Source of the DNA: Candidatus Anstonellaceae archaeon
GTDB lineage: Archaea; Micrarchaeota; Micrarchaeia; Anstonellales; Anstonellaceae
Length of the DNA stretch: 64,000 nucleotides
Assembly: GCA_038891035.1 (NCBI GenBank)
Contig: JAWAEW010000002.1
Coordinates: forward strand, 22,476 to 86,475
Direction: 5' to 3'
The position numbers and the translations under genes are program-made. The notes beneath the pieces were generated by a model. The model saw only the letters and a list, made by a program, of their open reading frames with translations, had not been told where the DNA came from and searched no databases. Positions 1,174-42,252 of the stretch are shown in pieces (the stretch's first letter is position 1; each line of letters begins with the position of its first letter).

Positions 1174-1371
1174 CAGATCCTCCTCCCAACTACTGGCTTA
1201 ATATTTAAATGTTATTTTTTATGTCAAATTATGTTATGTTGTAAAATTTTATAAAACGTATAGTTAAACCGTCGAGAAAGATTAATTTTATTGGAAGAAG
1301 CAAAGCTTCGGTGTTGCGACTGATTTAAAGCGAAACGGTGCTTCAAGCCGCAAGCCGCGAAAAAAATGAGC

Positions 1372-1474
1372 GCCGACGAGGAGATTTGAACTCCTAAGCC
1401 CAAAAGGGCACTAGATTCCTCGCAGAATCTGAAGATCTCGAGTCTAGCGCATTACCAGATTCTGCCACGTCGGC
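1372..1474 (-). tRNA. tRNA-Ser (anticodon CGA) with ~20-nt intron at canonical 37/38 position
   Basis: Hand-folded from reverse complement: acceptor GCCGACG/CGTCGGC, 3-bp D-stem with 11-nt D-loop, anticodon stem CTAGA/TCTAG, loop CTCGAG[intron]A, long variable arm GCCC-TTTT-GGGC, T-arm AGGAG-TTCAAAT-CTCCT. No encoded CCA. Confidence 0.7.
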
Positions 1475-6447: not shown

Positions 6448-7485
6448 TTATGCAAGCGCCCCGACAAAACCACCTATAACTGTTTTACAGATATAGAAGA
6501 TGAAAAGAGCAGCAAGTGCAAGTGGTGGAAAATATTTTAGTCCAAAAAGTAATTTCCCCTCCGCAATTACTCCTACTAAAATAGAAGTCAATATTGCTGT
6601 TCCTACAATGATCACTATGGTAAGATCATCGATAAATTTGATGTCAAGCTTAACCTTTGGCGTGGAAAAGCCACCTATCATGCTTTGGCTGGCACCAGTG
6701 CCGATATTAGACTGTATTTTGGTGAAAACTGCAAGAAATTGAGAAGAAATTGCAAGAAGCAGTGGCAATCCAAAAACCAATATGAAAACTATAAAAATTG
6801 CATAAGTCTTGGTATTGACAATCATTTGCTTTCGCAGTTCTTCTGTTTCTCTAATTTCTTCTGCCGAAGTCTCAAGTAGATAGGCCAGCTTTCCACCTGA
6901 GCGCAAGCCGTTCTCAAAAAACAAAATTGTCCGCCGCAGGATTGAACTGTCGATTGTAGCTGTTAGTTGGCGCAATGCATCTGCAAATGATTCGCTTCCT
7001 AAAGATAAGGATGAAACATAAAGGATTTCTGACTGCAGGGGTCCAAATTCAGGCCTTGCCGCGGCTTGAAATGCAGCAAAAGGGGTCATGCCAGAGCGCA
7101 TGTTTGCTGCCACCATCAAAAGAAAATCCGGAAGGACGGCGTCCACTCTTTGAGTTCTTTCAGTTATAAGATAATAAAGGTGCATATAGATCAAGATTGC
7201 AGCAGCCAAAGCAAAGAGAATGCCCAGCCCAAAGCTTATGACAAGTTTCCCAGCCAAGGTCGGCGGATTAAGGATGGGGTATGCAGATAGGTCAAAAAAA
7301 CGGAAAATGCTGACTGGAAGAAGAGCACCAACAATTCCAAATAAGATAACTATAAGAAGACGGGAGCCAAGCCAAAGTTCTGGATTTGTTTCTATGCCAG
7401 CATAAGCAAGAAGCTGCGAGATTTTGTCTTTTGGGCGTGGCTTGAAAAATGTTGAAAATCGTTTTTCAACTAAATATTTTTTCAT
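6448..7485 (-). CDS. type II secretion/type IV pilus platform protein, TadC/FlaJ-like (T2SSF domain)
   Basis: 345 aa polytopic membrane protein with a cytoplasmic T2SSF-like segment (LPDFLLMVAANMRSGMTPFAAFQAA...). Confidence 0.6.
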   Translation of the reverse strand: MKKYLVEKRFSTFFKPRPKDKISQLLAYAGIETNPELWLGSRLLIVILFGIVGALLPVSIFRFFDLSAYPILNPPTLAGKLVISFGLGILFALAAAILIYMHLYYLITERTQRVDAVLPDFLLMVAANMRSGMTPFAAFQAAARPEFGPLQSEILYVSSLSLGSESFADALRQLTATIDSSILRRTILFFENGLRSGGKLAYLLETSAEEIRETEELRKQMIVNTKTYAIFIVFILVFGLPLLLAISSQFLAVFTKIQSNIGTGASQSMIGGFSTPKVKLDIKFIDDLTIVIIVGTAILTSILVGVIAEGKLLFGLKYFPPLALAALFIFYICKTVIGGFVGALA

Positions 7486-7492
7486 AGAACCA

Positions 7493-8407
7493 CTAATCGC
7501 TAAACAGGCTTGGTCTTTTCATTTTGACGTAAGCAATGATGGCCATCTGACCTAAAAATCCAATTCCAACAACAGCTGAAAGAACTTCTGGTGTAACACC
7601 AAGCATCCCAAATACTGAAAAAATTACGAGGACGGTTGTTCCTATAGTAGGGAGTACGGCTGCAACCATCAGATATATCAGAATTATGAAGTTGAGTTCT
7701 GCATTGAATGATTTGAAAAGCGAAAACTGGTAGTCTACCAGCAATTTGACTATGCTTCGAAGGGTAGAGGACAGATTAGCGCCTGCTCTAATTGCAGTAA
7801 CGAGTTGCCATGAGACCTTTTTGAGATAGACCGACTGAGTCTTAATGGCCATATTTTCCAGTTCTTCTAAAAGAGGACTTCCTCCCCTAACGTTATTTGC
7901 AACTTCTTTAAATGCCGGCCCTACGTACTTGTAGTTTGAGTTTCCGATGTTTTCTATCGCATTGAAAAGCGGTATTCCAGAATTCACCTGTATTAGCATA
8001 TCACGCATGACAAAAATAAGCTCATGGTCTATCTTTGCTGCAATGCTCCTTGCAATAAGGCGAGGGAAAGCCAAATGAAGCAGAAGGAAAAAAAGAAAAC
8101 TGATTGCAAAAGAAAGGAATATTATAAGACCTTTAACAGGTGAAGGAAGAGTAGGGCTCAGCGTTGCAATTACGCCCACGACAATAGATATAAGTGCGGA
8201 CCAAATTGCGGCTGAAACTGCCGCAACTCCACAATAATATTCTGCCGGAAATTCAAGACCTATAGATCTTAGGTCATATCTTATTGATGGGTAAAATGCA
8301 AGGACTTTTAAGCCGATACCTTTCAGTCGCGCTCCTAAAGTGGGGACTGATGAGATTGGTAAAAGCATGACCGGAATGCGAACCGGCTGAGTTGTCATAA
8401 GAATCAC
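7493..8407 (-). CDS. type IV pilus platform protein, TadB/FlaJ-like (T2SSF domain)
   Basis: 304 aa membrane protein with a T2SSF-like segment (IFVMRDMLIQVNSGIPLFNAIENIG...). Separate gene, 8 nt from the downstream paralog. Confidence 0.6.
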   Translation of the reverse strand: MILMTTQPVRIPVMLLPISSVPTLGARLKGIGLKVLAFYPSIRYDLRSIGLEFPAEYYCGVAAVSAAIWSALISIVVGVIATLSPTLPSPVKGLIIFLSFAISFLFFLLLHLAFPRLIARSIAAKIDHELIFVMRDMLIQVNSGIPLFNAIENIGNSNYKYVGPAFKEVANNVRGGSPLLEELENMAIKTQSVYLKKVSWQLVTAIRAGANLSSTLRSIVKLLVDYQFSLFKSFNAELNFIILIYLMVAAVLPTIGTTVLVIFSVFGMLGVTPEVLSAVVGIGFLGQMAIIAYVKMKRPSLFSD

Positions 8408-8409
8408 GG

Positions 8410-10140
8410 CTATTTTTTACTTCCAATAGCTCGCTTGGCTATTTCTAAGATTTCATTTGGCTTGCTGTAATAAAGAGACATTATTCGGCCTACTGACTCC
8501 ATATCAGAAAGCTTGTTCTCAATCATCCATCTTATAATAGTGGCCCTGTTCTTTATATCTTGGTATATTTCCTCTTTGGTCATGCCTGTATGAAGGTTAA
8601 TTTCCTTGAGGTATTTGTTTGGCTCGCCTACCATTTCAAATGTATCAGTGCGTGGGCGCCATCTGTAAATTACATTGGTTGTTATTTCCTCGTCTTTGGC
8701 ACCTGGAACTATTTCGCAAATTTCCAAGGTTCTCCTAACATTCTTCCTCCTATCACGATATTGGACTACAATAAGGTTGACTGCTTCGAGGTCAGATGGA
8801 GGAAGGCTGATTGGGGGGCTAGTAAGCCTTCTTATAGCCTGCATCCCCGTATCAGCGTGCAAAGTTGCTGCAACAGAGTGGCCTGTGTGCATAGCCTCGA
8901 ACAATACTTCAGCTTCTCTTTGCCTTCTCATTTCACCAAGCAAGATTCTATCTGGCCGCATACGAAGCGAGGTAACCATCAAATCAAGCATTGTAACTTC
9001 ACCTAAGCCTTCTGCATTTGGATTTCGAGTTAAAAGAGGTACCCAGTTCCACTGGTAATGTGGCAGCATAAGCTCTCTGGTATCCTCTATTGTGACAATA
9101 CGCTGATTTGGAGGAATAAATGATGCCAGTGCGTTCAAAGCTGTAGTTTTTCCGGATGCTGTGCCGCCTGCAACTAAGATGTTCATTTCATAATGTATTG
9201 CCTGCCACAGCATTCCTGCCATTTCCGGTGTCATGGAGTAGCCTGGTTCACCCACAAGATTTACAATTGTCCATGGATTTCTTGCAAAGCGCCTAATTGT
9301 AATTGTGTTCCCATGTGCAGAAATCGGTGCAAGAGTAGAGCAAACTCTATCTCCGGTTTCAAGCCTAGCATCCAGTATTGGTGTTAAGTTTGCAATTTGT
9401 CTCCCAACTCGGCGTGCAATTTGGGAAGAATAATTGAAGATAGATTCTTCGTCTGGCATGTAAATATTTGACTTAAGCCAGCCAAACTTGCGATGATATA
9501 CTCCAATTGGGGTTTTTGAATTGTTAATAATAATTTCCTCAAGCCAGTCATCGTGGTTGATAATCTCTATCTCTCCTAACCCAAACAACTTATGCAAAAG
9601 CATTCCAACCAGAACTTCATCAACCTCCTTTCCGAGGTGGAACTGCCGAATATAATTGGTTATCGTAAGCTTGAATTCCTCGCGTGCTTTGGCTGCTTTT
9701 TCAATATCTGAAACATCAGACTGTGCACCGGCAGGTATTGCCCGCAAAAGTTCGTCTTTTATGAGGTCCAGAAAAATCTTGGTTGCAGTACCAAACTCAA
9801 CTAAGGTCAGGATATAGTGCTTTTCTCTTTCAGTATCTAATATCATTACACTTGCTGGCACTCCATCTGCTGAAAACATATAGCTGGCCAACACCTTTCC
9901 CTTTGTTGCACCGACTTCGGGCTTTGGTGGCTCAGCCGGCAGGATCCTGAAAGATACTGTTGGCTTTTCAGTTATGCTTAATGGGTAATGCAAATCTAAG
10001 ACCCCGCCCTTTTCAAGCACTGCACAGATAAGCTCAACGGTTTCTACCGGCATGTGTAGATATTTTGAGAGAATTTCAACACTGATATTTTTTTTGCGCT
10101 GTGCAAGTGAAACAAGCTGGTCTATCTTTGTCTCAAACAT
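8410..10140 (-). CDS. type IV pilus/archaellum-family assembly ATPase (FlaI/TadA/VirB11 superfamily)
   Basis: Walker A VAGGTASGKTT, Asp box IVTIEDTRE, His box, and an N-terminal extension, as in archaeal FlaI-like ATPases. Confidence 0.85.
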   Translation of the reverse strand: MFETKIDQLVSLAQRKKNISVEILSKYLHMPVETVELICAVLEKGGVLDLHYPLSITEKPTVSFRILPAEPPKPEVGATKGKVLASYMFSADGVPASVMILDTEREKHYILTLVEFGTATKIFLDLIKDELLRAIPAGAQSDVSDIEKAAKAREEFKLTITNYIRQFHLGKEVDEVLVGMLLHKLFGLGEIEIINHDDWLEEIIINNSKTPIGVYHRKFGWLKSNIYMPDEESIFNYSSQIARRVGRQIANLTPILDARLETGDRVCSTLAPISAHGNTITIRRFARNPWTIVNLVGEPGYSMTPEMAGMLWQAIHYEMNILVAGGTASGKTTALNALASFIPPNQRIVTIEDTRELMLPHYQWNWVPLLTRNPNAEGLGEVTMLDLMVTSLRMRPDRILLGEMRRQREAEVLFEAMHTGHSVAATLHADTGMQAIRRLTSPPISLPPSDLEAVNLIVVQYRDRRKNVRRTLEICEIVPGAKDEEITTNVIYRWRPRTDTFEMVGEPNKYLKEINLHTGMTKEEIYQDIKNRATIIRWMIENKLSDMESVGRIMSLYYSKPNEILEIAKRAIGSKK

Positions 10141-10436
10141 GAAGCAAAATCGCTTTTGAATTTATTAAACTTTCTTTCCTAGCAAAAATGAGGATACTTG
10201 ATGTTGCAGTGTTCTACGGGTGAAGTCGATTTTTGCGCAAAAGCAAAAAGAGCAGTGGTTGATTGAAAACTAGGCGCCGAGCTCGTATTTGCGCTTGTAA
10301 AGCTTAGCTCGCCGATAGTTTATGATTTTCATAACAGGAAATTACCTTTGCTTCATTTCAGAGGCGATTTGCAGCATACACTCAAAAGGCTTGAAAGCGA
10401 TATAGATTTAAGATAATCGGTGCAGATATAAACATC

Positions 10437-11696
10437 ATGAGAATGACTGCAAAAGCTACATTAGCTGGGATTGCAATTGCGGCATTAATTTCATTTCCTT
10501 CATCAAAATTGAACTCGCAAATAAATGAGAATCAGATAAAAAAGAAGTTAGCAGACAAAGTTCTTGTTGAAAATTCTTCAGCTTATACTACAGAAAAATA
10601 CAAAATCTACAAAGAAGGTGTAAATTTCGTACTTTTTCCACCAGATGTAAAAGTTGAAAAAATAGAACTAAAGGAAAGAAAAGATGAAAACAAAATAACT
10701 GCCTCCGACAATACAACTGGTGGAATGAGAATTATTTATGGGGATGCTTTTTGTCAAGCATTCGTACAAAAGATTATAGAAGATTCTTTAACTGGAGGAG
10801 GGGTAGGATGGATTTCGAAAATATACCCCCTTGATTCTTTTCCTTCACACAGAAACGGAATAAACCTATTTCCTCAAGGAAGGATCATAAAAAAGACCTA
10901 TCCAAGAATTCTAATGCCCCCAAATACGGATGGCCACTATATAGCTACTCGGACTTACTATATCGAAAATATCTGGCCTCCATACCATGACAGTGTAAAT
11001 GCATATTATCAGCAAATAGCATTAAACTTGATCTTTCAGCACGGGGATAGGCCAAGTGTTTTCTTCTTTGCAGGAGATAGGGATACTACTAAGAAGGCTA
11101 CTAAAATGATTATAATAAGTATAACGCAATTTGACTCTAATGGTGTTCAGATTGTGCCGCCGGATCCAAGAGTAAGAGGCCCCCCTGTAGCGGCTGCAGA
11201 AGTAGTAAGAGATGATCACATAAATGGAACGGGAGATTTTCGGGAGATAATAATGGCTATGGGGACACTGACAGATATGCAGATTTTGGCCGATGGTAAA
11301 ATTCTCGAAGAACAGGAATTTCAAATGTTTGGAGGGATGAATGAAGATACTCTCAATTCTTTTTTTGTTCGTCCTCCGATCAAAGCAAAAGAATTCGTGA
11401 TGGGAGTAGAGGAGAAATTTGAGCTGGTGAAAGAATATAGGCTTTCACAAAACTATCCAAATCCATTCAATTCACAGACAACAATTGAGTTTTCTTTACT
11501 CAGACCAGGACGCGTAGTGATTAGAGTGTATGATATGATTGGGAGGAGAATAGCAGAGATTGTTAATGAAGAATTAAAAGATGGGACTTATCGCGTCAAC
11601 TGGAAACCACAAGCAAGTATTTCAAGTGGTACGTACATCTATGAATTGAGCAGTGATGGCTATATCGACAGGAGAAAAATGATATATATAAAATAA
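10437..11696 (+). CDS. secreted protein with C-terminal T9SS-type (Por secretion tail) sorting domain
   Basis: N-terminal signal peptide. The C-terminal 80 aa, LSQNYPNPFNSQTTIEFSL...RVYDMIGRRIAEIVNEELKDGTYRVNWK...SGTYIYEL, matches the TIGR04183/Por_Secre_tail consensus closely. Confidence 0.6.
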   Translation: MRMTAKATLAGIAIAALISFPSSKLNSQINENQIKKKLADKVLVENSSAYTTEKYKIYKEGVNFVLFPPDVKVEKIELKERKDENKITASDNTTGGMRIIYGDAFCQAFVQKIIEDSLTGGGVGWISKIYPLDSFPSHRNGINLFPQGRIIKKTYPRILMPPNTDGHYIATRTYYIENIWPPYHDSVNAYYQQIALNLIFQHGDRPSVFFFAGDRDTTKKATKMIIISITQFDSNGVQIVPPDPRVRGPPVAAAEVVRDDHINGTGDFREIIMAMGTLTDMQILADGKILEEQEFQMFGGMNEDTLNSFFVRPPIKAKEFVMGVEEKFELVKEYRLSQNYPNPFNSQTTIEFSLLRPGRVVIRVYDMIGRRIAEIVNEELKDGTYRVNWKPQASISSGTYIYELSSDGYIDRRKMIYIK

Positions 11697-11709
11697 ATTT
11701 TTTCTTTAT

Positions 11710-14700
11710 TTAGGAGTTCAGTGTTGTAATGCTAACAGTAAAACCTTGGTTGTACAATGCACGTATTTCATCTTCTGAGAGTGCTCTTTTGAATATTTGG
11801 ACTTCATCGATTATGCCTTCATAAGGCTTATTGAGTGAAGGAGAATTTCCTATAATTAGTCTTGGGTAAGTCTGGCCCAGATCTCCTGAAACATCACCAG
11901 TTGCATAAAGTACTCCGTTAATGTAAATAAAGCCGACCCCATCTTTTCTGCTTACTGTGATATGGGTCCACTCGTCTGTGGCTAATTCGATGGGCGATGA
12001 TATTACTTTATTTGCTGCAATAAAGTTCAGATAACCATCTGACAACTCAAGGGCGAAGCCAGAATTCTGAATTTGGTTACTTATGATTTGGCTGGAGATT
12101 ACTGATTTGGGCTTAACCCATAAAGAAACTGTGAAATCATCTCTGCCCTGGAGCACAGGCGATGGGACCGAAAGATGGGAGAATAGAGATGTGAAGTTGT
12201 ATGCTCCACCTATTTTACCAAATGGAGTCCAGTTTGCTGAAACATTTGCATGAAGCAGAAGAGGAGAGTAATCAACCGATATTCCTTCTACTTCTCTATA
12301 ATCGAATGGCAATGAAAGTAGCGCATCAGGAAGCTGCCTTTTTAGGCGAAGCTTGGCATTATAATTTGCAGTAATATTGCTAAATGAAGCGGATGGCTTA
12401 TAAAAGACATCAAGGTCAAGGCTGCACTTGTCTTGATATAAGCCTTTGTAGTGATTTTCGATTTCCCGTTCAGATAGAGCTCTCTTATAGAACCTTATTT
12501 CATCAATCAGTCCTCTGAAACCGTTGCTTCCTGAACTATCAGATGCACCTATAAAGAATGGGGACGATGAGTTTATCCTCAAAAGGCTGAACTGACCTGA
12601 TGCAACCGATTTATCATCAAGATAGATGTTGTATTCGCCTAATCTTCTAACAGAAACTGACACCATATGCCAATTCCCATCTGATAAATCGAGTAGATGA
12701 CTTATCTGTGAAGACTGGCCACTTCCATTTGCACTATAAAATGAGATGTTGAGGAAATTAGCAGGATTCAAAAACCAATCAATCCCCTGTGCTGCCCCAA
12801 ATTCCTGTCCTAGCTGATAAAATAGCCTTGCAAAGCTTCCTTGGCCGGTATAAGGCCTTATCCATACAGACATAGTAAAATCATTGATCTCTGTAACTGA
12901 AACATCGTCTAGATAGACTACTTGGTTGTTTAGAGGTGTATAAAACCGAAGTTCAATGACTGCATTTTGAAGTGTAGAAAATGGTTGTGTGATCCTTTCA
13001 AAAGTAGTGCTTAGCTGCTTTGTGATAAATATGTCTGCACCGGGATTCAATGAATTCCACTGCCCGGAAGGCGCCAAGTACATTTGGTTTTGCACATCAA
13101 CAATTGCATATCTAATCGCATCATTTTGAAGCTCGCCTCTCGCCCAAAACTCAAGCAAATAATTCCTGTTTCCTTTCAGTGCTGAATAAAGAGCTGAACT
13201 GTAAATATACGACGAGGGATCGCTAGAGTAGATTTTAACTGAAGTCGAGCCTGACTTTACTATGTTGTGCTCTGGCTCAAATATGCCATTTCCTTGCTTT
13301 ATCCAATTGTTGAAAAGGAAGGATTGGCTGCCTACACCTGGAGGGATAATGCAGTACTTTACAGATCCGCTTGTTCTTGTTACATTGCACACTGCATTTG
13401 GATCACAGCAGGGATGAACATCGTCACAGCGAGAATTGGTTGGGAAGCAGGTTGTGCATCGCCCATAATCTTGTATTCCCTCAAAAAAGAAGGGAAGTTT
13501 TTTTATCTTGAAAAAGTAGTCGCGAGAATAGGTTTGCTGCTCTTGTTGTGCAACTGTATTTACAAGGTCACAGAAAAGCCCCTCGCAGCATTGCGTGTCA
13601 TTAGTGCAGAGGGCACCTTGCTGACCGCATGTAGGAAGAGGAGGCGCACATCTGAAGGTTTGTTCCCCGTCAAAAAGACACCTGTTTGAGCAGCATTCTG
13701 AGTGATTCCTACAGGTATGGTTGAGAGGAAGGCAGTCCACACACTTTGAGAAATTAGCAGAGGTGCTCAGTAGATCGCAAAGCCCGGAGCAACATTGACT
13801 GTTTTCAGTGCAATTGGTGGTGCTGTTCGTTTGAATGCAAACTGAGCATATCTTTTGGGATGAGCCTGCGGGTGCTGCACAAATACTGCATGTCTGCGGG
13901 CAGTCTGAAGAAATGGTGCAGCTCTGGTTGCATCCTATTCCGCATCGTGGTTGGCTTTCTTCATCTATAAAGCATCTACCACTGCAACATTCGTTGCTGG
14001 TTCCATCTTGGCAAGAGGCAAGTAACTGCCCATTTTGAAGGCAACAGATTCCGTTTAAACAGATTGAGGGGGGGCAACAAGGGATTTTGTTGTCTCCTGA
14101 ACACGGCTGGGAAGCATTTGCGCAATTTAGGTTTGTTAATTCAGCTACATTAGTAGGATTAGAACGATCAGACTTGGCAACAAGATTAGGATTGTTTTTG
14201 GCTTCTGCTTGTATGTATAATTGAACGCTTGTACCATTTTCAAACGTCGAAGTGTTCAATGGTTCTTGCTTACGATACAAAAACAAAATTGGTATTATGT
14301 TGCCCGGCCTCTGCGCAACAAAGACATATGAAATATTAATATATGGTGTGCTGTCAGGACAATTTTGTATGCAGTATACGTTGGACCCTCGAATAACAGT
14401 TGGTGTGGGTGAAATAATTGGAGTGGGTGGTTTTTTAGGTTTGCAAACTCCATTCTCGCATCTTAATCCTATCGTTTTATCGCTATCACAGCAATCAGAA
14501 TCCTTAGTACATTGTTGCCCTCCTTGTGAGCATGCAGAACACCTTCCATTAATGCAAACTGAATTCGAACAGCAATCAGAATCTCTGAGACAGCCATAAG
14601 TCCCACGTGGCCAGCAAGGAACACACTTGCCATCTCTCATCATATAGAACTTAACTGAGCTTGAAGACGGGATTGCAGACCATGGTTGGCGCTCCTCTTC

Positions 14701-15468
14701 ACCTAAAAGGCATTTGCCGGAACAGCATTCAGAATGATAAGAACAGTTTTGCCCATTAGGAATGCATGAACATATGCCATTTATGCACATGGAACTTATA
14801 CAGCAATCAGCATCTGAGCTGCAAGGCCCGTATCCTCTTGGCCAGCATGAAACACATGTACCATTGAGGGGAGTTTCGACGAGCTTTGCAAGCCCAGAAA
14901 AAAGATTTTCTGATGATAAAAACGCCCCACCATCATTGTTGGTGCGTATAAGACATTTGGAAGAGCAGCAATCATTATTTGATTGACAGACTGCACCTTG
15001 TCCTTTGCATGTGGATGTGCTATCCCAGTGACAACCCACTGCTACACATACAGTTTCGTTATAAATGGAAGTGCATGGTAGAGATGGCCCACTGCTTACA
15101 TCATCACATGGAAATGCTGTAAAAGCATTAAATCTGCAATACCCTCCTGCAATATTGCATGCACCAGCCGGATTGTGACTTTTAGAGGCACAGTCGGCTT
15201 CATTTAGAGAAGAACAGAGAGTTGGAGCTGTACCGCTTGCACATGTACAATTGTTTGTCACTAGCTCATATCTCAGATTGCAATATCCTCGCAATTCAAA
15301 TTCGTAGCAAACCGAGGGATAATCGATCGGACCGCATCCGTCGGATGTACACCATGGGTGATTTAGGGAAGTACAGCTTACGTTAGGAGAATTTTGGTTT
15401 TGCGGCACGCAGCCAGCAAAAATGGCTGAAGAAAGCAATCCAAACAGCAACAAAGACAACATTCTCAT
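11710..15468 (-). CDS. 1252-aa surface protein: lipobox signal, repeated knottin-like 6-Cys modules, Pro/Thr linker, two C-terminal LamG_3 (ConA-like lectin) domains
   Basis: MRMLSLLLFGLLSSAIFAGC lipobox. At least 6 repeats with the pattern C-x6-C-x5-CC-x4-C-x4-C (e.g. CWPRGTYGCLRDSDCCSNSVCINGRC). Two LamG_3 signature motifs (IDEIRFYKRALSEREI and IDEVQIFKRALSEDEI). Confidence 0.7.
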   Translation of the reverse strand: MRMLSLLLFGLLSSAIFAGCVPQNQNSPNVSCTSLNHPWCTSDGCGPIDYPSVCYEFELRGYCNLRYELVTNNCTCASGTAPTLCSSLNEADCASKSHNPAGACNIAGGYCRFNAFTAFPCDDVSSGPSLPCTSIYNETVCVAVGCHWDSTSTCKGQGAVCQSNNDCCSSKCLIRTNNDGGAFLSSENLFSGLAKLVETPLNGTCVSCWPRGYGPCSSDADCCISSMCINGICSCIPNGQNCSYHSECCSGKCLLGEEERQPWSAIPSSSSVKFYMMRDGKCVPCWPRGTYGCLRDSDCCSNSVCINGRCSACSQGGQQCTKDSDCCDSDKTIGLRCENGVCKPKKPPTPIISPTPTVIRGSNVYCIQNCPDSTPYINISYVFVAQRPGNIIPILFLYRKQEPLNTSTFENGTSVQLYIQAEAKNNPNLVAKSDRSNPTNVAELTNLNCANASQPCSGDNKIPCCPPSICLNGICCLQNGQLLASCQDGTSNECCSGRCFIDEESQPRCGIGCNQSCTISSDCPQTCSICAAPAGSSQKICSVCIQTNSTTNCTENSQCCSGLCDLLSTSANFSKCVDCLPLNHTCRNHSECCSNRCLFDGEQTFRCAPPLPTCGQQGALCTNDTQCCEGLFCDLVNTVAQQEQQTYSRDYFFKIKKLPFFFEGIQDYGRCTTCFPTNSRCDDVHPCCDPNAVCNVTRTSGSVKYCIIPPGVGSQSFLFNNWIKQGNGIFEPEHNIVKSGSTSVKIYSSDPSSYIYSSALYSALKGNRNYLLEFWARGELQNDAIRYAIVDVQNQMYLAPSGQWNSLNPGADIFITKQLSTTFERITQPFSTLQNAVIELRFYTPLNNQVVYLDDVSVTEINDFTMSVWIRPYTGQGSFARLFYQLGQEFGAAQGIDWFLNPANFLNISFYSANGSGQSSQISHLLDLSDGNWHMVSVSVRRLGEYNIYLDDKSVASGQFSLLRINSSSPFFIGASDSSGSNGFRGLIDEIRFYKRALSEREIENHYKGLYQDKCSLDLDVFYKPSASFSNITANYNAKLRLKRQLPDALLSLPFDYREVEGISVDYSPLLLHANVSANWTPFGKIGGAYNFTSLFSHLSVPSPVLQGRDDFTVSLWVKPKSVISSQIISNQIQNSGFALELSDGYLNFIAANKVISSPIELATDEWTHITVSRKDGVGFIYINGVLYATGDVSGDLGQTYPRLIIGNSPSLNKPYEGIIDEVQIFKRALSEDEIRALYNQGFTVSITTLNS

Positions 15469-15497
15469 ATAGATTCCTCTATAAAACTTCCCTTTAT

Positions 15498-16991
15498 CTA
15501 TCCGCTAGAGCCACCCACACTATAATATTGTTCAAACCCGCCGTTTAATCCTGAAGATTGCTTAAGTGAAACGGCATCATAAATCACGTCGCCGCTTTCT
15601 GCTGCAAAAAACTTCAAAGTAACTTCAGATGATCCAAGTGGAAGCAGGAATTCTTTAGTGATTCGGATAAAGTCAGAGTTGACACCTGTCTCGAATAGAT
15701 GTTCTGATGAATCCCAACTTCCGTCTGCTTGAAGGTATTTTCCCTTGCTTCTGTCAAAGATAGAGTATTTGCCGTTTTGGCCTTGCGAAAGAAACTGGAG
15801 TGTATAAAATGAGTTTTCGGATAAGTAAACATTTTGATAGATATAAAAATCAACACTTGCATAGCCTTGTGGATTGGAGATCTCTGCTGCCCAATTGTTT
15901 TGTATCAAAGCAGGGCCGATGTAAACATCTTCTGGGTAGTTGTTTTCAACCACCCATGAAGGCCAAATGTTTGGAGGAATTCCATTTCTATCTTCAAAAT
16001 CTCCGTTTGAAACAAGCTCTGAGCCTTGCGGAAAGATTATTTCTGTTTCGGTGAGTGAGAAGTTATTTCGGTACATGTATTGATTTCCTGTAAATTCCAT
16101 GCAGCCTTGGCTTTTGCAGGAAAGTTTGAAGAGGGGCGTGTTCTGTCCGCCTCCTACTGTAAAATCAAGGCCATAAAGAGAATAATCACGTACTTTCATA
16201 TTTGAAGCAGGCGAATCAAGCGGAAGTACAAGAGCTCCAGATGGGCTTTTCGTATAAGATATGGAAGTATAATTTCTTGAAAGCAATCCTGAGAAATTAG
16301 AAACAAACAGAAGAATTGTGCCATCAGGATATGAAATTTGCAAGGTTGCAATATGGTTTGACACCGGTGTATTGGTGAATCTTGTTTTTGTGCCGATATT
16401 ATCTACATATTTGAGATTATAATAGAGGTTGTCAGAACCTGCCTGACCACCAGAAACAGAAAAGGCACCGATGTTGGTTGCACTTTTTGAGCAGTTTACG
16501 GTGGCGTATATTGAGATGGGCTGCCAACCCAGAGGATGGTAATAAATTATCACATCGTTTGGGCCATCGTTGCTATAAAACAGACCTCCTGACTCTGAAA
16601 TATTCATAATAAATGCATTGCTTCCGTTTATCCAAGAAACCAAAATAGCTTCAACTCCGCTATTTCTCAGATTTTCAGGTAAGGTGGCTGCATACTCATA
16701 GAGATTTGCAATTGGATGGCCTTCTTTTTTGAATGGGAGGGTAGATGAAACTGTTAAATGTATAGAAGATTGGGTTTTTCTAATATCTGCCTTTGTCCCA
16801 AGTACAGCAGCAAGGTCAGAAGATACTTGTTCTTCTATCCTTGCAATTTCAGATGGCAAGAGTTCAGTAAATGCGGTTCTTTGGCTTTTTCGCCACTCCT
16901 GCGAAAATAGAGCCATTCCGATAAGCGTAATTGACAGAATTAGTATTGATATGGTAAAAGTGAAACCTTTCGGAAGCTTTCTTTTGGTCAT
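15498..16991 (-). CDS. pilin-like protein with class III-type signal peptide and CBM4_9-like carbohydrate-binding module
   Basis: N-terminus KRKLPKG|FTFTISILILSITLIGMALF fits the [KR]G-hydrophobic prepilin pattern. NGDFE and NGGFE motifs with an aromatic-rich beta region resemble CBM_4_9. Confidence 0.45.
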   Translation of the reverse strand: MTKRKLPKGFTFTISILILSITLIGMALFSQEWRKSQRTAFTELLPSEIARIEEQVSSDLAAVLGTKADIRKTQSSIHLTVSSTLPFKKEGHPIANLYEYAATLPENLRNSGVEAILVSWINGSNAFIMNISESGGLFYSNDGPNDVIIYYHPLGWQPISIYATVNCSKSATNIGAFSVSGGQAGSDNLYYNLKYVDNIGTKTRFTNTPVSNHIATLQISYPDGTILLFVSNFSGLLSRNYTSISYTKSPSGALVLPLDSPASNMKVRDYSLYGLDFTVGGGQNTPLFKLSCKSQGCMEFTGNQYMYRNNFSLTETEIIFPQGSELVSNGDFEDRNGIPPNIWPSWVVENNYPEDVYIGPALIQNNWAAEISNPQGYASVDFYIYQNVYLSENSFYTLQFLSQGQNGKYSIFDRSKGKYLQADGSWDSSEHLFETGVNSDFIRITKEFLLPLGSSEVTLKFFAAESGDVIYDAVSLKQSSGLNGGFEQYYSVGGSSG

Positions 16992-17049
16992 TGAACCTCA
17001 ACCCTTAAGATCGCAAAAAAAGCTTAATAAATTTCCTATGAATGCCATT

Positions 17050-18090
17050 TTATTTTCCACGATACCAGCCACGAATGATAACAAAACCATAATCATTTTG
17101 AAGCTGATTGGTATTTTTTGCAAATGGGACAGTTAGAGATTGGATCTCTCCACCTCCATACAGGCATCCAGGTCTGTTGACCATGTATAAAATATTTTCA
17201 GGATTGCTGTAAAGAAGCTGCACTTCTTGATGAGAAAGAACACGGTCGTAAAGGCGCACTTCATCCAAAATGCTGTCGCTGTTGAATCCTATTTGGAGAG
17301 GGTTGTTATTACTATTTGGTGCCATGGCAAAATCATCAGTGTCTGCCGCAGTTCCATCTACATAAAGAGTAGCCACTCCTTCTATATCAAAAGTTGCAAC
17401 GATGTGATGCCAGTTGCCATCAGCAATATATGGTCCCTCCAACCATGATTCATCAGATGAAAATATGTGGAAAAAGACGTTTCCTTCTTCAGTAATGCCA
17501 ACAGAATATTTTTCCTCAAATGAAAATAATAATTGTTGATTGCCAATATTTTGACTTTTAACCCATAGAGAGACTGAAAAACTTTCTTGCTCAAAAAGAG
17601 GAGAAAACTGAACTGTTCCGTATGTTGTAGAAGAGAAATGAATGGCCCCGCCCGCTTTCCCATTTTGGACAAATATAGGGGATCCGATTAAAATCCCAAA
17701 AAGTCTGTTTGGAGTGGAGTCATAGATGATCGAACCTGCCACTTCATCAAGCTTCCAATATCCTACAAGACCATCCGCAAGCTGATTGCTAAAACCAACC
17801 ACCTCTATGCAAATTGAAGGAGAAGTCGCACTTAACACCTCTCTTATGGAAGCCGTGGTCTGTGTTAGGTCTTGTGGAGGAGAGAGTAGGCCCTTTTTTG
17901 AAAGCACTGTTGCAACATCTTGTAAGTAAGTTCTCAAAAGCTGGGTTTTAAAGTCTGAATCTTGAGTGTTGCCATAGAAAGTAAAGGCAATAAAGGTGGC
18001 CAGTATAATCATGAATATTGAGATTGCTGCATCAAGACTGAGGAATACTCCCCTTAGCCTCGAGTTAGAGATTTTCATTTTTTCTTCCAT
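17050..18090 (-). CDS. pilin-like protein with C-terminal LamG_3 lectin domain
   Basis: N-terminus SRLRG|VFLSLDAAISIFMIILATF is pilin-like. C-terminal motif ILDEVRLYDRVLSHQEVQLLY is the LamG_3 signature. Confidence 0.55.
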   Translation of the reverse strand: MEEKMKISNSRLRGVFLSLDAAISIFMIILATFIAFTFYGNTQDSDFKTQLLRTYLQDVATVLSKKGLLSPPQDLTQTTASIREVLSATSPSICIEVVGFSNQLADGLVGYWKLDEVAGSIIYDSTPNRLFGILIGSPIFVQNGKAGGAIHFSSTTYGTVQFSPLFEQESFSVSLWVKSQNIGNQQLLFSFEEKYSVGITEEGNVFFHIFSSDESWLEGPYIADGNWHHIVATFDIEGVATLYVDGTAADTDDFAMAPNSNNNPLQIGFNSDSILDEVRLYDRVLSHQEVQLLYSNPENILYMVNRPGCLYGGGEIQSLTVPFAKNTNQLQNDYGFVIIRGWYRGK

Positions 18091-18596
18091 ATCTGAACCC
18101 GAACTCTGACAATCTTATCATCCAAAATTGCAAGCCTTTCAGCACTGGATATCTTGGAATTAGTATAATCAGGTTCTAACCCGAAAGAATAAAGCAAGCT
18201 GCCCGAATCTGCATCGATTACACTCAGATAAATATCGAATGGCCCTGCACCCATCTTTTCCTTTACCAAATCATAATATCCGTTCATGGGCGACAGTGCG
18301 GAAAGTTTAGATGGCGAAAGAACATTTCGTGATGAAGCAAAACCGAAAGCATTGGCTTTGAGAAAATCGTCATTTTCCCAATCAGAAGGAACTCCCGAAG
18401 AAAGCACAAACATATCTGATATCCCTACCAAAATAGTTTGCATATCATGCATCGATTGCTCTTCATAATATGAATTTGAAACTAAATTCCATGAAAAAAG
18501 AAAAATTGCAAGAGCTGCAACAAATATTGCAGACGATATTACAAGCTCTGTAGAAAGCATTTGGCCAAGTGTTGAAGAAAATTTGGATTTACCCAT
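18075..18596 (-). CDS. minor pilin-like protein
   Basis: 173 aa. N-terminus LGQMLSTELVISSAIFVAALAIF has G-Q-x-x-S-x-E followed by a hydrophobic helix. Confidence 0.4.
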   Translation of the reverse strand: MGKSKFSSTLGQMLSTELVISSAIFVAALAIFLFSWNLVSNSYYEEQSMHDMQTILVGISDMFVLSSGVPSDWENDDFLKANAFGFASSRNVLSPSKLSALSPMNGYYDLVKEKMGAGPFDIYLSVIDADSGSLLYSFGLEPDYTNSKISSAERLAILDDKIVRVRVQIWKKK

Positions 18597-18601
18597 ACTG
18601 C

Positions 18602-18994
18602 TTACGCCTCGTATATGTAAATGACATTATCCCTATTTTCTATTATTATTTGGGTGTTGAGTGGAACAGAAGAGGACTGAGTCATGTTTGTAGTCAGTGG
18701 AACGGAATAAAGGCCATTTGCTGAATATCGAACAGTTACAAATTGTCCTTTAACCGAAATATCAACTATATTTTCACTCGCTGTAGTTGAAAGGAAAATC
18801 TTTGTAGAATTTCCTCCGGCCGCAGCGCGGTTTATCGCAAGCGCCAATTTGTTTGCCACTGACCCAGCCTCGAGCAATTGCTTTTGTCTTTCCCATAAGG
18901 CCTGCAGATTCTGGTTTGCAATATAGATAATAAAAAGGATAAACGCCATTACTGCTGCAATCACAACCAATTCAACTGAAAGCTGTCCTTTCAT
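18602..18994 (-). CDS. archaeal type IV pilin (class III signal peptide)
   Basis: MKGQLSVELVVIAAVMAFILFIIY is the canonical KG|Q-x-S-x-E prepilin motif. 130 aa. Confidence 0.6.
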   Translation of the reverse strand: MKGQLSVELVVIAAVMAFILFIIYIANQNLQALWERQKQLLEAGSVANKLALAINRAAAGGNSTKIFLSTTASENIVDISVKGQFVTVRYSANGLYSVPLTTNMTQSSSVPLNTQIIIENRDNVIYIYEA

Positions 18995-18998
18995 ATTT

Positions 18999-19784
18999 TC
19001 AACCTATTTCAAAGCTTACAGGAACAATAAAAAACTCCTCCCTGCATTCTTGCACGCATGATGGATGGCGTAGTGAAGTATTTATTAATAGATTCCAATT
19101 ATAGACGCCTCCCGCATCAACTGAAGGTTGGAAGATGATACTAACGATTGCTCTGCTTCCAGCAGTTTGAAAAGATGAAGGAAAAATTGCAAGAGGAACT
19201 TTTTGATATTCATTGAAAGCTTGGATATTAATCTCCAAGTTATCAGAAGATGAAGGGATTATTTCCAGCGAAGCTGAAGAAGGTTGCCCTTTTTTGCCTT
19301 TATGATAAATTATGGAAGGCTGGATTTCAACCAGGCTTGCCCCAATAGATACATAAGAACCAAAGGAAATAACTTTGATTTGATAAGTTCCAGGCGAAGA
19401 AGGGAATACTCCAGAAAGAGGTGCTAGAGTGCTTGCAGAATAGTCTGAGCCAGCTACATGAAGGTTGATAATATTGTTTGAAAGCACCGAAAAATCTAGC
19501 GGTTTTCCAATATAGCTTTTTTTGAGAGAAAGATTCGCAGAAGGAGGGATTGTAATACTGACAATTTTAGTAGCTCCTTTTCCTTCTGCGTAAACACTAT
19601 CTGCCGCATTGGCAAGTGTTTGCACTGTCTCTTTTGCCAACTTGGCATCTTTCTGGACGCTAACATCAAACAAAAGATTCGAAGATAGGACCGTAAAAGT
19701 CAAAAGAATGAGAAGAAGAATGCCAAGAACCGAGATCAGCTCTGCAGACGCTTGGGCAGAGAGGACTTGGAAAAATCTATGCAT
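18999..19784 (-). CDS. pilin-like beta-rich protein, paralog of 19821-20576
   Basis: N-terminus LSAQASAELISVLGILLLIL is pilin-like. The body aligns with the neighbour (VYAEGKGATKIVSITIPP...KSYIGKP vs VYAQGAGASVIVEIFLPP...KTYIGKP). Confidence 0.45.
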   Translation of the reverse strand: MHRFFQVLSAQASAELISVLGILLLILLTFTVLSSNLLFDVSVQKDAKLAKETVQTLANAADSVYAEGKGATKIVSITIPPSANLSLKKSYIGKPLDFSVLSNNIINLHVAGSDYSASTLAPLSGVFPSSPGTYQIKVISFGSYVSIGASLVEIQPSIIYHKGKKGQPSSASLEIIPSSSDNLEINIQAFNEYQKVPLAIFPSSFQTAGSRAIVSIIFQPSVDAGGVYNWNLLINTSLRHPSCVQECREEFFIVPVSFEIG

Positions 19785-19820
19785 AGAGTAAGAATACAGA
19801 TTTTATTTTAAATTCTTTCA

Positions 19821-20576
19821 TTAGCGCACTTCTACAGTAACTGGAACCGTAAATGATTGGTTTCCTATTTCTGAGCTCACAAAAATTTCCATATTCAAAT
19901 TATAAATTCCCTCTGCGTTATTATTTGCGGCTATTGACACCAAAAACTGAGTGGGTTCGACCTGAAGCTCGCTGGAAGAGGGAGAAACGTTGATGGATAT
20001 ATCTGAGGGCACCCACGGTAAGTAAATAGATGCAAATGCTAAAGAAGAAATCTTCTTTTCCAGAACTATTGATTCGTTCCTGATTTCTCCCTTTGCCATG
20101 CTAACAAATACTGATGGTCTGCTGATAGAGGCGATATATGGCACAATGAACACTTGCCCTCCTTTTGAAAACAAGTACATTTTGTGGGAGCCGCTTTTAG
20201 TCGGAAAAGAACCGGCCAGATTTGCCTGTGTAGATGCAAAGATATCGCTTTGTCCTACTCGCATATTAATGGTCTTTGGGAGTATGAAGGATGAGACATT
20301 TGCAGGCTTGCCTATATATGTTTTGTTAGGATTAAAATCGATTGTCGGAGGTAGAAAAATTTCAACTATTACTGATGCTCCAGCTCCTTGCGCATAAACC
20401 GTATCTGCTGCAATTGCAAGTCTTCTTACTGAATCATAGGCAAGTTTTTCGTTCTTTTCAATTGAAGCTTCGGATAAAAATGAAAGAGAAAGAGACATGA
20501 ATATGAGAACAACTAAAAGTGAAATTCCCATTATAGTGATAAGTTCTGTTGCTACTTGGCCTATTTTGCTATGCAT
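19821..20576 (-). CDS. pilin-like beta-rich protein, paralog of 18999-19784; first gene of the pilus operon
   Basis: N-terminus KIGQVATELITIMGISLLVV is G-Q-x-x-T-E plus a hydrophobic helix. Paralogy as described for the neighbour. Confidence 0.45.
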   Translation of the reverse strand: MHSKIGQVATELITIMGISLLVVLIFMSLSLSFLSEASIEKNEKLAYDSVRRLAIAADTVYAQGAGASVIVEIFLPPTIDFNPNKTYIGKPANVSSFILPKTINMRVGQSDIFASTQANLAGSFPTKSGSHKMYLFSKGGQVFIVPYIASISRPSVFVSMAKGEIRNESIVLEKKISSLAFASIYLPWVPSDISINVSPSSSELQVEPTQFLVSIAANNNAEGIYNLNMEIFVSSEIGNQSFTVPVTVEVR

Positions 20577-20627: not shown

Positions 20628-22370
20628 ATGTTATTTTCGCAAGTTGCAGAAATTTTTTCAGAAATCGAACGCGAGCCTTCAAGGCTTGAGATGTCTGCAA
20701 AGATAGCAAATCTTCTTGCAAAGTGCGAGCAAGATGAAATAAGACCACTCATATATATTATGGAGGGGAGTATAGCTCCCCCATACGAAGGATTGGATAT
20801 TGGCATAGGTGAAAAATTTGCCATTCGAGCTATATCTCAAGTAAGTGGGCAGGACCAAAAGATTGTGGAAGGATATTTCAAAAAACTTGGGGACGTGGGC
20901 AGTGCAGCAGAAGAAGTGCTAAAGAGAAAAAAACAAACAAGCTTAGGATTCACACCGAATACTATCCAGAAGGTCTACCAATCCTTTCTGAAAATTGCCA
21001 GGCTTTTTGGACCAGGGTCGCAGGAAGCAAAAATCTCAGTTCTTTCTGAGCTGCTAAATGGGGCTACGCCACTTGAGGCCCGCTACCTTGTCAGGTTTTG
21101 CCTTGGAAAATTGCGGCTTGGAATTGGGGATCCGACAATAATTGATGCCCTTTCGATGCTGAAAAAAGGCAGCAAAGAAGACAAGGATATGATTGAACGT
21201 GCATTCAATTTATGCTCGGATATGGGAGAGGTAGCCCAAGCTTATTTGGCAGGAAAAGATTTGTCAAAATTTACTCCTACCCCTGGCAAACCCATCAGAC
21301 CTGCACTTGCTGAAAGACTCTCTTCGGCTGAGGAGATATTAGAAAAAATGGGTGGGAAATGTGCAGTTGAAGCAAAGTATGATGGGTTGAGAATGCAGGT
21401 CCACGTATATGACAAGAAAGTTGAAATTTTTTCCCGCAGACTCGAAAAAATGACTGAGATGTTCCCTGAGATTACAGAGGCTGCAAAGGATCTGAAAATC
21501 CAACAAATAATATTTGAAGGTGAGGCTCTTGCATACAGCAAAAAGGAAAAAAGGTACATGTCATTTCAAGAGACAATTCAGCGGAAGAGAAAATACGGCG
21601 TAGATATGATGGCTAAAGAATTCCCTTTGCAACTTTTTGTTTTTGATGTTTTATATATAGATGGAAAGGACATGACACTTCAACCGTATAAGGAAAGAAG
21701 GATGAAGCTGGAGCGAATCTTTTCAAAATCAACGGTTTTGGTTCCTGCCCAGCAAATAATAGTTGAAAGCAAAAAGCAGCTGGAAGAATATTTCCAAAAA
21801 TGCGTGCTTGAAGGACTAGAGGGGGTCATAGCAAAGGATCTGGAGCAACCGTATATTGCAGGTGCCAGAAAATTTGCTTGGATAAAGCTCAAGAAGTCTT
21901 ATGGTGAGATGGTAGATACTATTGATGCAATAATAGTTGGCTATTACTTAGGCAAAGGGCAGAGGAAGGAATTCGAATTTGGTGGGCTGCTGGCAGCTGT
22001 ATTGAATGCTGAAAGCGGCAATCTTGAAACTATAGCAAAAATTGGAAGCGGATTTTCAGAGGAAGAAATGAAAAACTTGGAGAGCATGCTTAGCAAGATC
22101 AGAATAAAACAAAAGCCACCAGAAGTTATTTCAGAACTGGAGCCAGATTTCTGGGTTGAACCCAAATATGTGGTGACAGTTGCCGCAGATGAGATAACTC
22201 TTTCTCCTGTACACACATGCGGAAAAGAAGAAAATCCAGAGGCAAAAGGATATGCACTCAGATTCCCAAGAATGATAAGCATTAGGCAAGACAAAGGGCC
22301 TGATGAAGCAACTACTACCCAAGAAATTCTAAGAATGTATAAGATGCAGAAAAAAAGGGACCTTAATTAG
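20628..22370 (+). CDS. lig: ATP-dependent DNA ligase
   Basis: 580 aa with the KYDG adenylation motif (EAKYDGLRMQVH) and OB-fold C-terminus. Archaeal Lig size. Confidence 0.9.
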   Translation: MLFSQVAEIFSEIEREPSRLEMSAKIANLLAKCEQDEIRPLIYIMEGSIAPPYEGLDIGIGEKFAIRAISQVSGQDQKIVEGYFKKLGDVGSAAEEVLKRKKQTSLGFTPNTIQKVYQSFLKIARLFGPGSQEAKISVLSELLNGATPLEARYLVRFCLGKLRLGIGDPTIIDALSMLKKGSKEDKDMIERAFNLCSDMGEVAQAYLAGKDLSKFTPTPGKPIRPALAERLSSAEEILEKMGGKCAVEAKYDGLRMQVHVYDKKVEIFSRRLEKMTEMFPEITEAAKDLKIQQIIFEGEALAYSKKEKRYMSFQETIQRKRKYGVDMMAKEFPLQLFVFDVLYIDGKDMTLQPYKERRMKLERIFSKSTVLVPAQQIIVESKKQLEEYFQKCVLEGLEGVIAKDLEQPYIAGARKFAWIKLKKSYGEMVDTIDAIIVGYYLGKGQRKEFEFGGLLAAVLNAESGNLETIAKIGSGFSEEEMKNLESMLSKIRIKQKPPEVISELEPDFWVEPKYVVTVAADEITLSPVHTCGKEENPEAKGYALRFPRMISIRQDKGPDEATTTQEILRMYKMQKKRDLN

Positions 22371-23008
22371 TTAAGATGGGCAAACATATATGGAAATATT
22401 TTGAAGGTCCTGTGAAGGATATAAAATGGAAACTACCATCGATTATTCATAAACTCAATTTTACTGTTAAATTATACCTAACGCCTTATTTCCAATGTCC
22501 CAAAGCACTCAAAGTTATTATTTGGTGCATATTTGGAAATGGCCATCGATAGTCGACTCTACGGTATAATAGACTTTCAATTGATTCTGTCATTCTACTA
22601 AATGACAAATATAAACAATTGCCCGATAAACCGTTCCGAAAAGAATGACATTTTTATTTCCCCACTAAGCCTTCTATCCTCGTAACTCGATATAATATGG
22701 AAGTTTGGCAGACAAAAAGCGAAGCATATGAATTTAAGTTAGGCCAGATTACTCAAATCCTTTCAATACTTCAACAATTATTGAATTTTCACTTCCGAAG
22801 GAATCAGTGGCAACTATATTCTTGCTGATGCATTTGCCAAGAAAGTTGAAACGATTGTTGACTAAGATTTGCAAGAAGGAAGATACAAAACCGAAACCAA
22901 GGGATATATTTCTACAAATTGAAAGCCAGAACCTGTAGGAATAAAGTATTCAGCAAAAATCTCTACGTAGTGCAAATAATTTAAGGATAGTAGAAAAAAG
23001 ATACAAAT

Positions 23009-31793: not shown

Positions 31794-31894
31794 CGCCGAC
31801 GAGGAGATTTGAACTCCTAAGCCCGAAAAGGGCACCAGATTTCCTGCTTTCGCAGTCTCAAGTCTGGCGCATTACCAGGTTCTGCCACGTCGGC
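31794..31894 (-). tRNA. tRNA-Ser (anticodon UGA) with ~16-nt intron at 37/38
   Basis: Same architecture as the tRNA at 1372-1474. Anticodon stem CCAGA/TCTGG, loop CTTGAG[intron]A, long variable arm GCCC-TTTTC-GGGC, T-arm AGGAG-TTCAAAT-CTCCT. Confidence 0.7.
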
Positions 31895-42236: not shown

Positions 42237-42252
42237 AGCCAACACCACAGAA

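Follow-up and report, generated by a model that had tools for sequence, protein, structure and literature searches.

A 64,000-nucleotide stretch of DNA from a Candidatus Anstonellaceae archaeon (Micrarchaeota; contig JAWAEW010000002.1, positions 22,476 to 86,475; hereafter the window) contains a gene for a 419-residue protein that ends in a canonical C-terminal domain (CTD) of the bacterial type IX secretion system (T9SS). The gene is a lineage-specific insertion in a type IV pilus operon and belongs to a rare, fast-turning-over family that occurs only in or beside this operon. Our preferred interpretation, to which we assign a probability of about 0.6, is that the CTD module is bacterial in origin and has been retained as a T9SS-independent immunoglobulin (Ig)-like module of a variable, pilus-associated surface protein.

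T9SS CTDs are treated as signals that are meaningful only where a T9SS exists, i.e. in bacteria of the FCB group. Here, a canonical CTD is under strong purifying selection in archaea, which are reported to be without T9SS. The CTD fold seems to have a T9SS-independent function, which matters when T9SS cargo or the presence of a T9SS is deduced from CTD counts in metagenomes. The host, a Micrarchaeota archaeon, is a tiny symbiont. The family would be a new, fast-turning-over accessory component of the host-contact apparatus of Micrarchaeota and a clean example of the transfer of a single domain from a bacterium to an archaeon.

The C-terminal domain and its relatives

Three parts make up the protein: a predicted Sec-type signal peptide, a domain of ~300 residues for which no relatives are known, and a type-A T9SS CTD. 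Its CTD belongs to Por_Secre_tail/TIGR04183 in sequence as well as in position, fold and motifs. The preliminary description of the window had recognized a T9SS CTD in the last ~80 residues, and the profile searches bore this out: residues 340-416 scored 28.9 bits with PF18962 (Por_Secre_tail; cut-off 27) and 36.0 bits with TIGR04183 (cut-off 23). Modest Pfam scores are usual in CTDs of this subtype: ten of the nearest bacterial CTDs scored 35-44 bits and the archaeal family 29-40 bits with the same model. The CTD of every family member was above the PF18962 threshold. The domain reaches the final residue (419 of 419) and forms the extreme C-terminus in 7/7 intact members. In NCBI, the identical protein MEM4348086.1 was automatically named as a T9SS-CTD protein.

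Modeled alone with AlphaFold2 (79-sequence alignment), the CTD reached a pLDDT of 89.8 and showed seven beta-strands. The Foldseek matches included 8gl8_D and 8gl6_D, which are substrate CTDs bound to the SprA translocon, and the mirolase CTD 8qb1_A, but also many generic Ig-like sandwiches. The fold is consistent with a T9SS CTD and not discriminating by itself. More specific are the motifs. T9SS function requires a beta3-beta4 loop with an essential Gly (...DMNGRR... in RgpB) and the C-terminal strand (PMC11285876). Both T9SS-recognition motifs are present in the window protein, as VYDMIGRRI and the terminal RKMIYIK, with the RgpB motif mapped by sequence alignment and not by structure superposition. 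Across the family G369, R370, K414 and K419 are invariant, and the terminal K-x-x-x-x-K strand is kept in all seven intact members.

At the other end of the protein, hydropathy analysis showed one short hydrophobic segment behind a short charged N-region and no further membrane-spanning segment. An equivalent signal-peptide-like N-terminus is found in every family member, and export by the Sec pathway is probable. A class III (prepilin peptidase) signal of the FlaFind type was not found at the N-terminus of the CTD protein, which rules the protein out as a pilin.

The CTD and the rest of the protein have very different relatives. A query with the full protein gave 4,352 matches, all but two of which span just the last 21-55% of it. 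The named sources among the matches listed are mostly Ignavibacteria, Chlorobi and Bacteroidota, with one Clostridiales; most matches are listed without a name. The domain had been called "Bacteroidota-type" before. Bacteroidota are indeed among the nearest named sources, but the term is slightly narrow, as Ignavibacteria and Chlorobi of the wider FCB group belong there too. Identity of the CTD is 45-60% to bacterial CTDs and 57% to the consensus of 118 of them.

For the N-terminal 335 residues, an exhaustive phmmer search against 1.84 billion representative proteins gave three matches: a 97% identical ortholog, P0002 (33%) and P0121 (28%). A profile search with the N-domain added P0123 and P0124, and locus L088 gave a further member, g4. 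The scan of metagenome contigs with the N-domain alignment returned one contig, already known. A search of this part for bacterial affinity had been proposed in the preliminary description; neither the 1.84 billion representatives nor the profile search yielded a bacterial homolog, and the relatives are from Micrarchaeota contexts only. No credible relative of the N-domain was found in Pfam (all members searched, E<=5), NCBIfam or the PDB sequences either.

The transfer of a whole bacterial surface-protein cassette, which had been suggested earlier, does not fit this picture, in which bacterial relatives exist just for the 84-residue CTD and not for the 335 residues ahead of it. The data are consistent with a CTD that was acquired as a domain and would have been fused to an N-domain that is either lineage-specific or unrecognizably diverged. 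For the CTD, the transfer was presumably from bacterium to archaeon. A distinct clade of archaeal CTDs was looked for and rejected: the archaeal CTDs are no closer to one another than to bacterial ones. As the bacterial set in this clustering was made up of the best matches to the window protein, and as a domain of 85 residues holds little signal, the comparison favors neither one nor several CTD acquisitions.

Insertion, turnover and selection

The gene is the sole plus-strand gene between the T2SSF and ATPase genes (6448..10140) and the LamG and pilin-like genes (11710..20576), all of which are on the minus strand. The open reading frame (ORF) layout agrees with what had been noted at the outset, namely that it is the only plus-strand gene in the pilus operon and lies in the divergent region upstream of the ATPase. 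A genome scan anchored on the conserved ATPase covered 80 DPANN loci. Nine related Micrarchaeota genomes, with an ATPase 76-93% identical to that of the window, have co-directional LamG, ATPase and T2SSF genes, and the LamG stop is ~65-245 bp from the ATPase start with no gene between. The full co-directional order p251-p261-p130-p173-p346-p497-LamG-ATPase-T2SSF-T2SSF was seen in L007, L010, L015 and L033. The order of the pilin block is conserved in five related genomes, these four and L001; the other related loci were too short or showed just part of the block. The ATPase keeps a conserved TATA-like element in the related genomes.

Since the operon of the nine related genomes lacks the CTD gene, this gene is an insertion. 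In the window, ~1.5 kb (10190..11709) is inserted between LamG and ATPase, with the CTD gene in the opposite orientation. Direct or inverted repeats at its flanks (short chance-level matches only), an integrase or a transposase were not found. The antisense position suggests that the CTD gene is regulated separately. An independent metagenome-assembled genome (MAG), GCA_038887295.1 (locus L002), has a 97%-identical ortholog with both junctions the same; its locus is 94.5% identical to the window at the nucleotide level over 11.3 kb. Over the 80 nt just ahead of the CTD gene the two differ by one base (G to T). To judge by the names of the MAGs, the source samples were apparently hot-spring metagenomes.

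The other family members were found by protein similarity alone. There are seven intact members, one CTD-bearing fragment, whose N-domain family is not known, and one frameshifted relic, all from one Micrarchaeota subclade. N-domain homologs of the window protein are P0001, P0002, P0121, P0123, P0124 and L088 g4. All members are in or beside one type IV pilus/LamG operon and antisense to it, the intact ones at three positions and the relic and the fragment at two more. P0121 occupies the window site on four independent metagenome contigs (L003-L006), where the ATPase is 85.6% identical but the CTD protein just 31%. L003 and L089 have a window-like site beside ATPase/LamG genes, and P0124 is convergent with the LamG gene, as in the window. 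P0002 (L001) is flanked by a 171-aa gene and the CitMHS transporter gene, ~3.2 kb past the end of the pilin block, and the ATPase-adjacent site in this genome is empty.

P0123 (470 aa) and L088 g4 (397 aa) form an antisense tandem pair (L088 2562..5189, plus strand) between the p497 and p346 homologs and have a near-identical N-terminal stretch of 38 residues in common. P0123 is also a mosaic, its N-domain being nearest to P0121 and its CTD nearest to P0124. Together, the mosaic and the common N-terminus suggest gene conversion or recombination among paralogs. On L003, positions 2..313 (plus strand) encode the C-terminus of a second intact CTD protein, convergent with the T2SSF gene; its N-terminal part is off the contig. 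Hence at least two CTD genes flank the pilus ATPase and platform genes in that organism.

A decayed copy exists in the window itself. The frameshifted relic was recognized with a local search by the CTD hidden Markov model (HMM; 25.3 bits, E 5e-6) and with tblastn (window protein, P0002 and P0121 as queries; E 4e-5 to 4e-4). It lies in a 640-bp gap between the DNA ligase gene (20628..22370) and a gene for an ATP-cone/Mrr-like protein (23009..23851), two genes which abut without a gap in L001. The CTD HMM was also run on all six-frame ORFs of the window and 86 loci and found nothing beyond the family, the one relic and the one fragment. Among the other ATPase-anchored DPANN loci, beyond the known carriers, there was no CTD-bearing gene within 10 kb. 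Lineages with the family show >=44% identity to the window in the C-terminal part of LamG and >=46% in p497, against <=39% in lineages without it. As the carriers are all closer to the window, a single gain at the base of the subclade is parsimonious.

The CTD gene is under purifying selection. It differs from the L002 ortholog by 29 synonymous and 14 non-synonymous changes, with a ratio of non-synonymous to synonymous rates (dN/dS) of 0.12; in the same comparison eight neighbor genes gave 0.08-0.22. Split by part, dN/dS was 0.16 for the N-domain and 0.03 for the CTD (8 synonymous : 1 non-synonymous). Other pairs within the family gave 0.12-0.30. In the family alignment 20/84 CTD columns are invariant vs 17/~335 in the N-domain, and the conservation per column in archaeal CTDs follows that in bacterial ones (Spearman 0.77). 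The low identity to P0002 and P0121 had suggested steady fast evolution of the N-domain. This was rejected, as the short-range dN is 0.014 and not above that of the neighbors. With an N-domain dN this low, old paralogy together with recombination accounts for the divergence at least as well.

Origin and function of the module

By content the window is archaeal, with ribosomal protein S4e, an ATP-dependent DNA ligase, SecY, the FlaI-type ATPase and long tRNA genes. The composition of the CTD gene had been proposed as a further check, with a mixed outcome. GC (0.370), GC3 (0.305) and the synonymous-codon likelihood score (0.078) are inside the range of the 33 other genes scored, GC being at the low end of the window range; by its tetranucleotide distance (95th percentile) the gene is mildly atypical, though no outlier. 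Codon usage is native. Across loci, the GC of the gene climbs with that of the host (0.37 in a 0.43, 0.456 in a 0.450 and 0.462 in a 0.534 background), and in 3/4 loci compared it is 0.05-0.07 under the host.

These data bear on two readings in which the gene would have no role in the archaeon. One of them, considered in the preliminary description, is an assembly or binning chimera of bacterial and archaeal DNA. A bacterial-type domain on an archaeal contig and the slightly low GC could be taken for its traces, but archaeal genes adjoin the CTD gene on the same contig, within 300 bp on one side and 13 bp on the other, the second MAG, from another assembly, shares the junctions, and six more contigs, which represent four additional lineages, carry homologs within this operon. 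A chimera is hardly credible. The other is the recent import of a whole bacterial T9SS cargo gene, now inert. With a predicted signal peptide, a cargo domain and a CTD, the protein is built exactly like T9SS cargo, its CTD shares 45-53% identity with bacterial ones, and both GC and tetranucleotide distance lean slightly the same way. Yet the N-domain has no bacterial homolog, the gene is intact in at least five lineages that have diverged to 24-35% identity, and selection, codon usage and the dependence on host GC all speak for a resident gene. Such an import is very improbable and largely refuted. Because of the L002 junctions, the native composition and the purifying selection, a chimera or a dead recent import can be excluded for practical purposes.

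What, then, could the module do? We propose that the family was gained once near the base of the subclade, with the CTD module alone coming from FCB-group bacteria, and that its genes would later have been duplicated, recombined, relocated and lost to decay, always in or beside the pilus/LamG-adhesin operon and in antisense. No outer membrane is known from Micrarchaeota. With a single membrane and presumably no T9SS in the archaeon, Sec export alone would suffice to put the protein outside the cell, and as this would suffice, the CTD is most likely used without a T9SS. Outside the cell, the CTD may form a compact Ig-like beta-sandwich by which the variable N-domain is docked or anchored, either to the cell surface or to the pilus/adhesin apparatus; this apparatus would in turn serve contact with a host or substrate. 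T9SS genes are reported to be absent from archaea (PMC11285876), and a scan of ~26 window proteins against Pfam or NCBIfam gave no match to a T9SS component. Type IV pili of Micrarchaeota that are linked to LamG proteins have been proposed to be host-interaction devices (PMC5498576). Repurposing of the CTD as a plain beta-sandwich had been among the options listed at the outset. It is the best reading, but "plain" may undersell a domain which is the most constrained part of the protein and has both T9SS-recognition motifs.

Several points weigh against this interpretation. The CTD retains exactly the surface motifs for T9SS recognition, and in the one recent, unsaturated comparison (window vs L002) the constraint on it exceeds that on the N-domain; of a mere scaffold one might expect more drift. 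The gene of L001 is outside the operon proper, and a recombination hot spot, not a common function, could underlie the linkage. Among bacterial CTDs the archaeal ones form no cluster of their own, so that a single acquisition is parsimonious, not proven. Finally, the full-length AlphaFold2 model (4-sequence alignment) had a pLDDT of 38 and was unusable; any activity of the N-domain is therefore a guess.

Two alternatives build on these points. The CTD could still be a sorting or recognition signal, read either by an archaeal machinery for surface attachment or processing, maybe coupled to the pilus, or by the T9SS (PorV, PorU) of an FCB partner; if the partner version were true, an association of DPANN archaea with bacteria would be implied. 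The stronger constraint on the CTD than on the N-domain, in dN/dS as well as in invariant columns, would suit a signal. So would the retention of the C-terminal position, the loop Gly/Arg and the K-x-x-x-x-K strand (the motifs of PMC11285876) in all seven intact members and the prevalence of Ignavibacteria, Chlorobi and Bacteroidota among the nearest named CTDs. But archaea are reported to be without T9SS genes and no outer membrane is known that would have to be crossed, the CTD is found on one family only and not on diverse cargo (window and 80 ATPase-anchored DPANN loci), and no candidate machinery gene travels with the family. T9SS substrates come from the periplasm of the cell that bears the T9SS, hence no cross-species route is known, and the conserved residues may be mere determinants of the fold. 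We consider a surviving sorting signal improbable, and it is quite improbable that the CTD has been co-opted as a working recognition or anchoring signal outside T9SS, be it for an archaeal machinery tied to pilus and LamG proteins or for FCB partners or hosts.

Alternatively, the gene could be a passenger without pilus function, a variable and possibly semi-mobile cassette in a pilus region that tolerates insertions and recombines often. Much of the turnover described above would be accounted for in this way: the three positions of the intact members and the two of relic and fragment, all antisense, the tandem duplication with its near-identical 38 residues, the mosaic P0123, the decayed copy and the sister genomes with a working-looking operon that lacks the gene. 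The LamG/pilus loci of Ca. Mancarchaeum are on genomic islands (PMC5498576). However, the window insertion shows no repeats, integrase or transposase, and the gene is under purifying selection. Furthermore, 7/7 members from protein-only searches are in or within ~3.2 kb of one operon and none turned up elsewhere, which is difficult to account for unless there is a functional or regulatory tie. A mere passenger is unlikely, and we retain the interpretation as a T9SS-independent surface module.

Compared with type-A CTDs of the FCB group (the "LSQNYPNPFN...KKMxLxK" subtype of Ignavibacteria, Chlorobi and Bacteroidota), the archaeal domain is alike in its scores, C-terminal position and 7-strand Ig-like sandwich, in the (here predicted) signal peptide and the cargo ahead of it, in the loop Gly and the Lys-rich terminal strand and in the pattern of constraint. 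Unlike these, it occurs in an archaeal host without a known outer membrane, in a domain of life from which T9SS is reported absent, on a single protein family instead of dozens of cargoes, and with all copies in or beside a type IV pilus operon. A CTD common to many unrelated cargoes was not seen in the six-frame ORFs of the window and the 86 loci. Classification of the protein as functional T9SS cargo is not warranted.

Annotations of archaeal CTDs are not new in themselves. Apart from the NCBI name of the window protein, a C25 (gingipain-like) peptidase with a Por CTD was listed as transcribed in Thermoprofundales/MBG-D (PMC6461988). This is likewise a T9SS-type CTD in an archaeal genome, but the cargo there is a known peptidase with bacterial relatives, and in the papers searched it appears in a table only, without analysis. 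In contrast, the window family has an orphan cargo domain, a tie to the pilus operon and a history of turnover. The loci of Ca. Mancarchaeum acidiphilum Mia14 (PMC5498576) resemble the window in their FlaI/TadA-like ATPase, TadC-like platform, pilin-like genes and LamG proteins; no CTD-bearing antisense gene was described there. A spacer or binding role as proposed here is also that of the FlgD Ig-like domain (PF13860), to which three family members showed weak sub-threshold matches. Unlike generic Ig modules of the PF13860 type, the domain is placed firmly in Por_Secre_tail by its sequence. In the open literature we found no study of T9SS CTDs in DPANN archaea, of this family or of its link to the pilus operon.

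Layout of the locus and further observations

The positions of the gene, its parts and its neighbors are given in Table 1.

Table 1. Features of the CTD locus in the window, with positions counted from the first nucleotide of the window
Feature	Position	Strand	Details
CTD gene	10437..11696	+	ORF, 419 aa; identical to P0122
Predicted Sec-type signal peptide	10437..10517	+	MRMTAK, hydrophobic core of 14-15 aa ATLAGIAIAALISF, then polar stretch
N-terminal domain, lineage-specific	10518..11441 (~aa 28-335)	+	24-35% identity among family members
Type-A T9SS CTD (Por_Secre_tail)	11442..11693 (aa 336-419)	+	QNYPNPFN motif; beta3-beta4 loop YDMIGRR; terminal RKMIYIK
Divergent intergenic region	10141..10436	.	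two putative A/T-rich TATA-like elements
TATA-like element, CTD gene	10400..10416		A/T-rich, ~21-37 nt upstream of ATG; putative promoter element
TATA-like element, ATPase-proximal	10160..10170		kept in five genomes with or without CTD gene; putative promoter element
FlaI/TadA-type type IV pilus assembly ATPase	8410..10140	-	PF00437 117 bits; NF058587 292 bits, under equivalog cut-off; divergent from CTD gene
Two T2SSF/TadC-like membrane platform genes	7493..8407 and 6448..7485	-	PF00482
1252-aa Cys-rich protein with two LamG (concanavalin-like) domains	11710..15468	-	PF13385 171 bits; convergent with CTD gene, 13-bp gap
Six pilin-like genes (497, 346 [LamG], 173, 130, 261 and 251 aa)	15498..20576	-	class-III-like N-termini; PF13385 in the 346-aa protein
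Frameshifted second-CTD relic	22747..22975	+	DYSNPFNTSTIIEFSLPKESVATIF, then LQEGRYKTE and GIYFYKLKA...VV in other frames

In its half distal to the CTD gene (window 10189..10354 vs L002 626..750), the intergenic sequence is rearranged and rich in insertions and deletions; just a 60-nt core aligns, at 80%. This half diverges although the genomes are otherwise 94-96% identical, and the 80 nt adjoining each start codon are conserved. A scan of the region for sigma-70 promoters and intrinsic terminators was uninformative, the host being an archaeon.

The 1252-aa LamG neighbor has a lipobox-like N-terminus (LLSSAIFAGC) and a long Cys-rich repeat region with weak Dickkopf-like matches. In L002 the LamG gene was called as a 501-aa C-terminal piece, followed by ~1.8 kb without a called gene, which points to a variable region, a frameshift or a fault of the assembly. 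Assignment of the LamG proteins to TafC (Tat-fimbriae) was rejected, with scores of 67 and 33 bits vs a cut-off of 410 that reflect LamG similarity only. The N-termini of the pilin-like proteins were recognized by inspection (GQ..S/T.EL or KG/RG, then a hydrophobic stretch); the FlaFind-type pattern matched p130 only, plus a site 20 residues into p346.

Upstream of the relic, at ~22477..22563, there are weak hints of N-domain remnants (E ~0.3). Two neighboring ATP-cone proteins (23009..23851 and 26018..26473, plus strand) are 83-84% identical to their counterparts in L001. The first of them has an unusual combination of an ATP-cone, an Mrr-like restriction endonuclease fold and an AF1548-like C-terminal domain.

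ATPase homologs with 44-52% identity were found in L028, L063, L071, L079 and L082, which are labeled as Thaumarchaeota, Altiarchaeota, Candidatus Falkowbacteria (a bacterium) or Methanosarcinales. Such labels may denote mis-binned DPANN contigs in public MAGs.

The window has six tRNA genes, and five of them (1371..1474, 31794..31894, 35184..35269, 38157..38256 and 42253..42338) are 86-104 nt long vs the usual ~72, a length suggesting that they carry archaeal introns. All six were found by Rfam, whereas ARAGORN missed three. The tRNA gene at 42253..42338 overlaps the start of the listed ORF 41883..42338.

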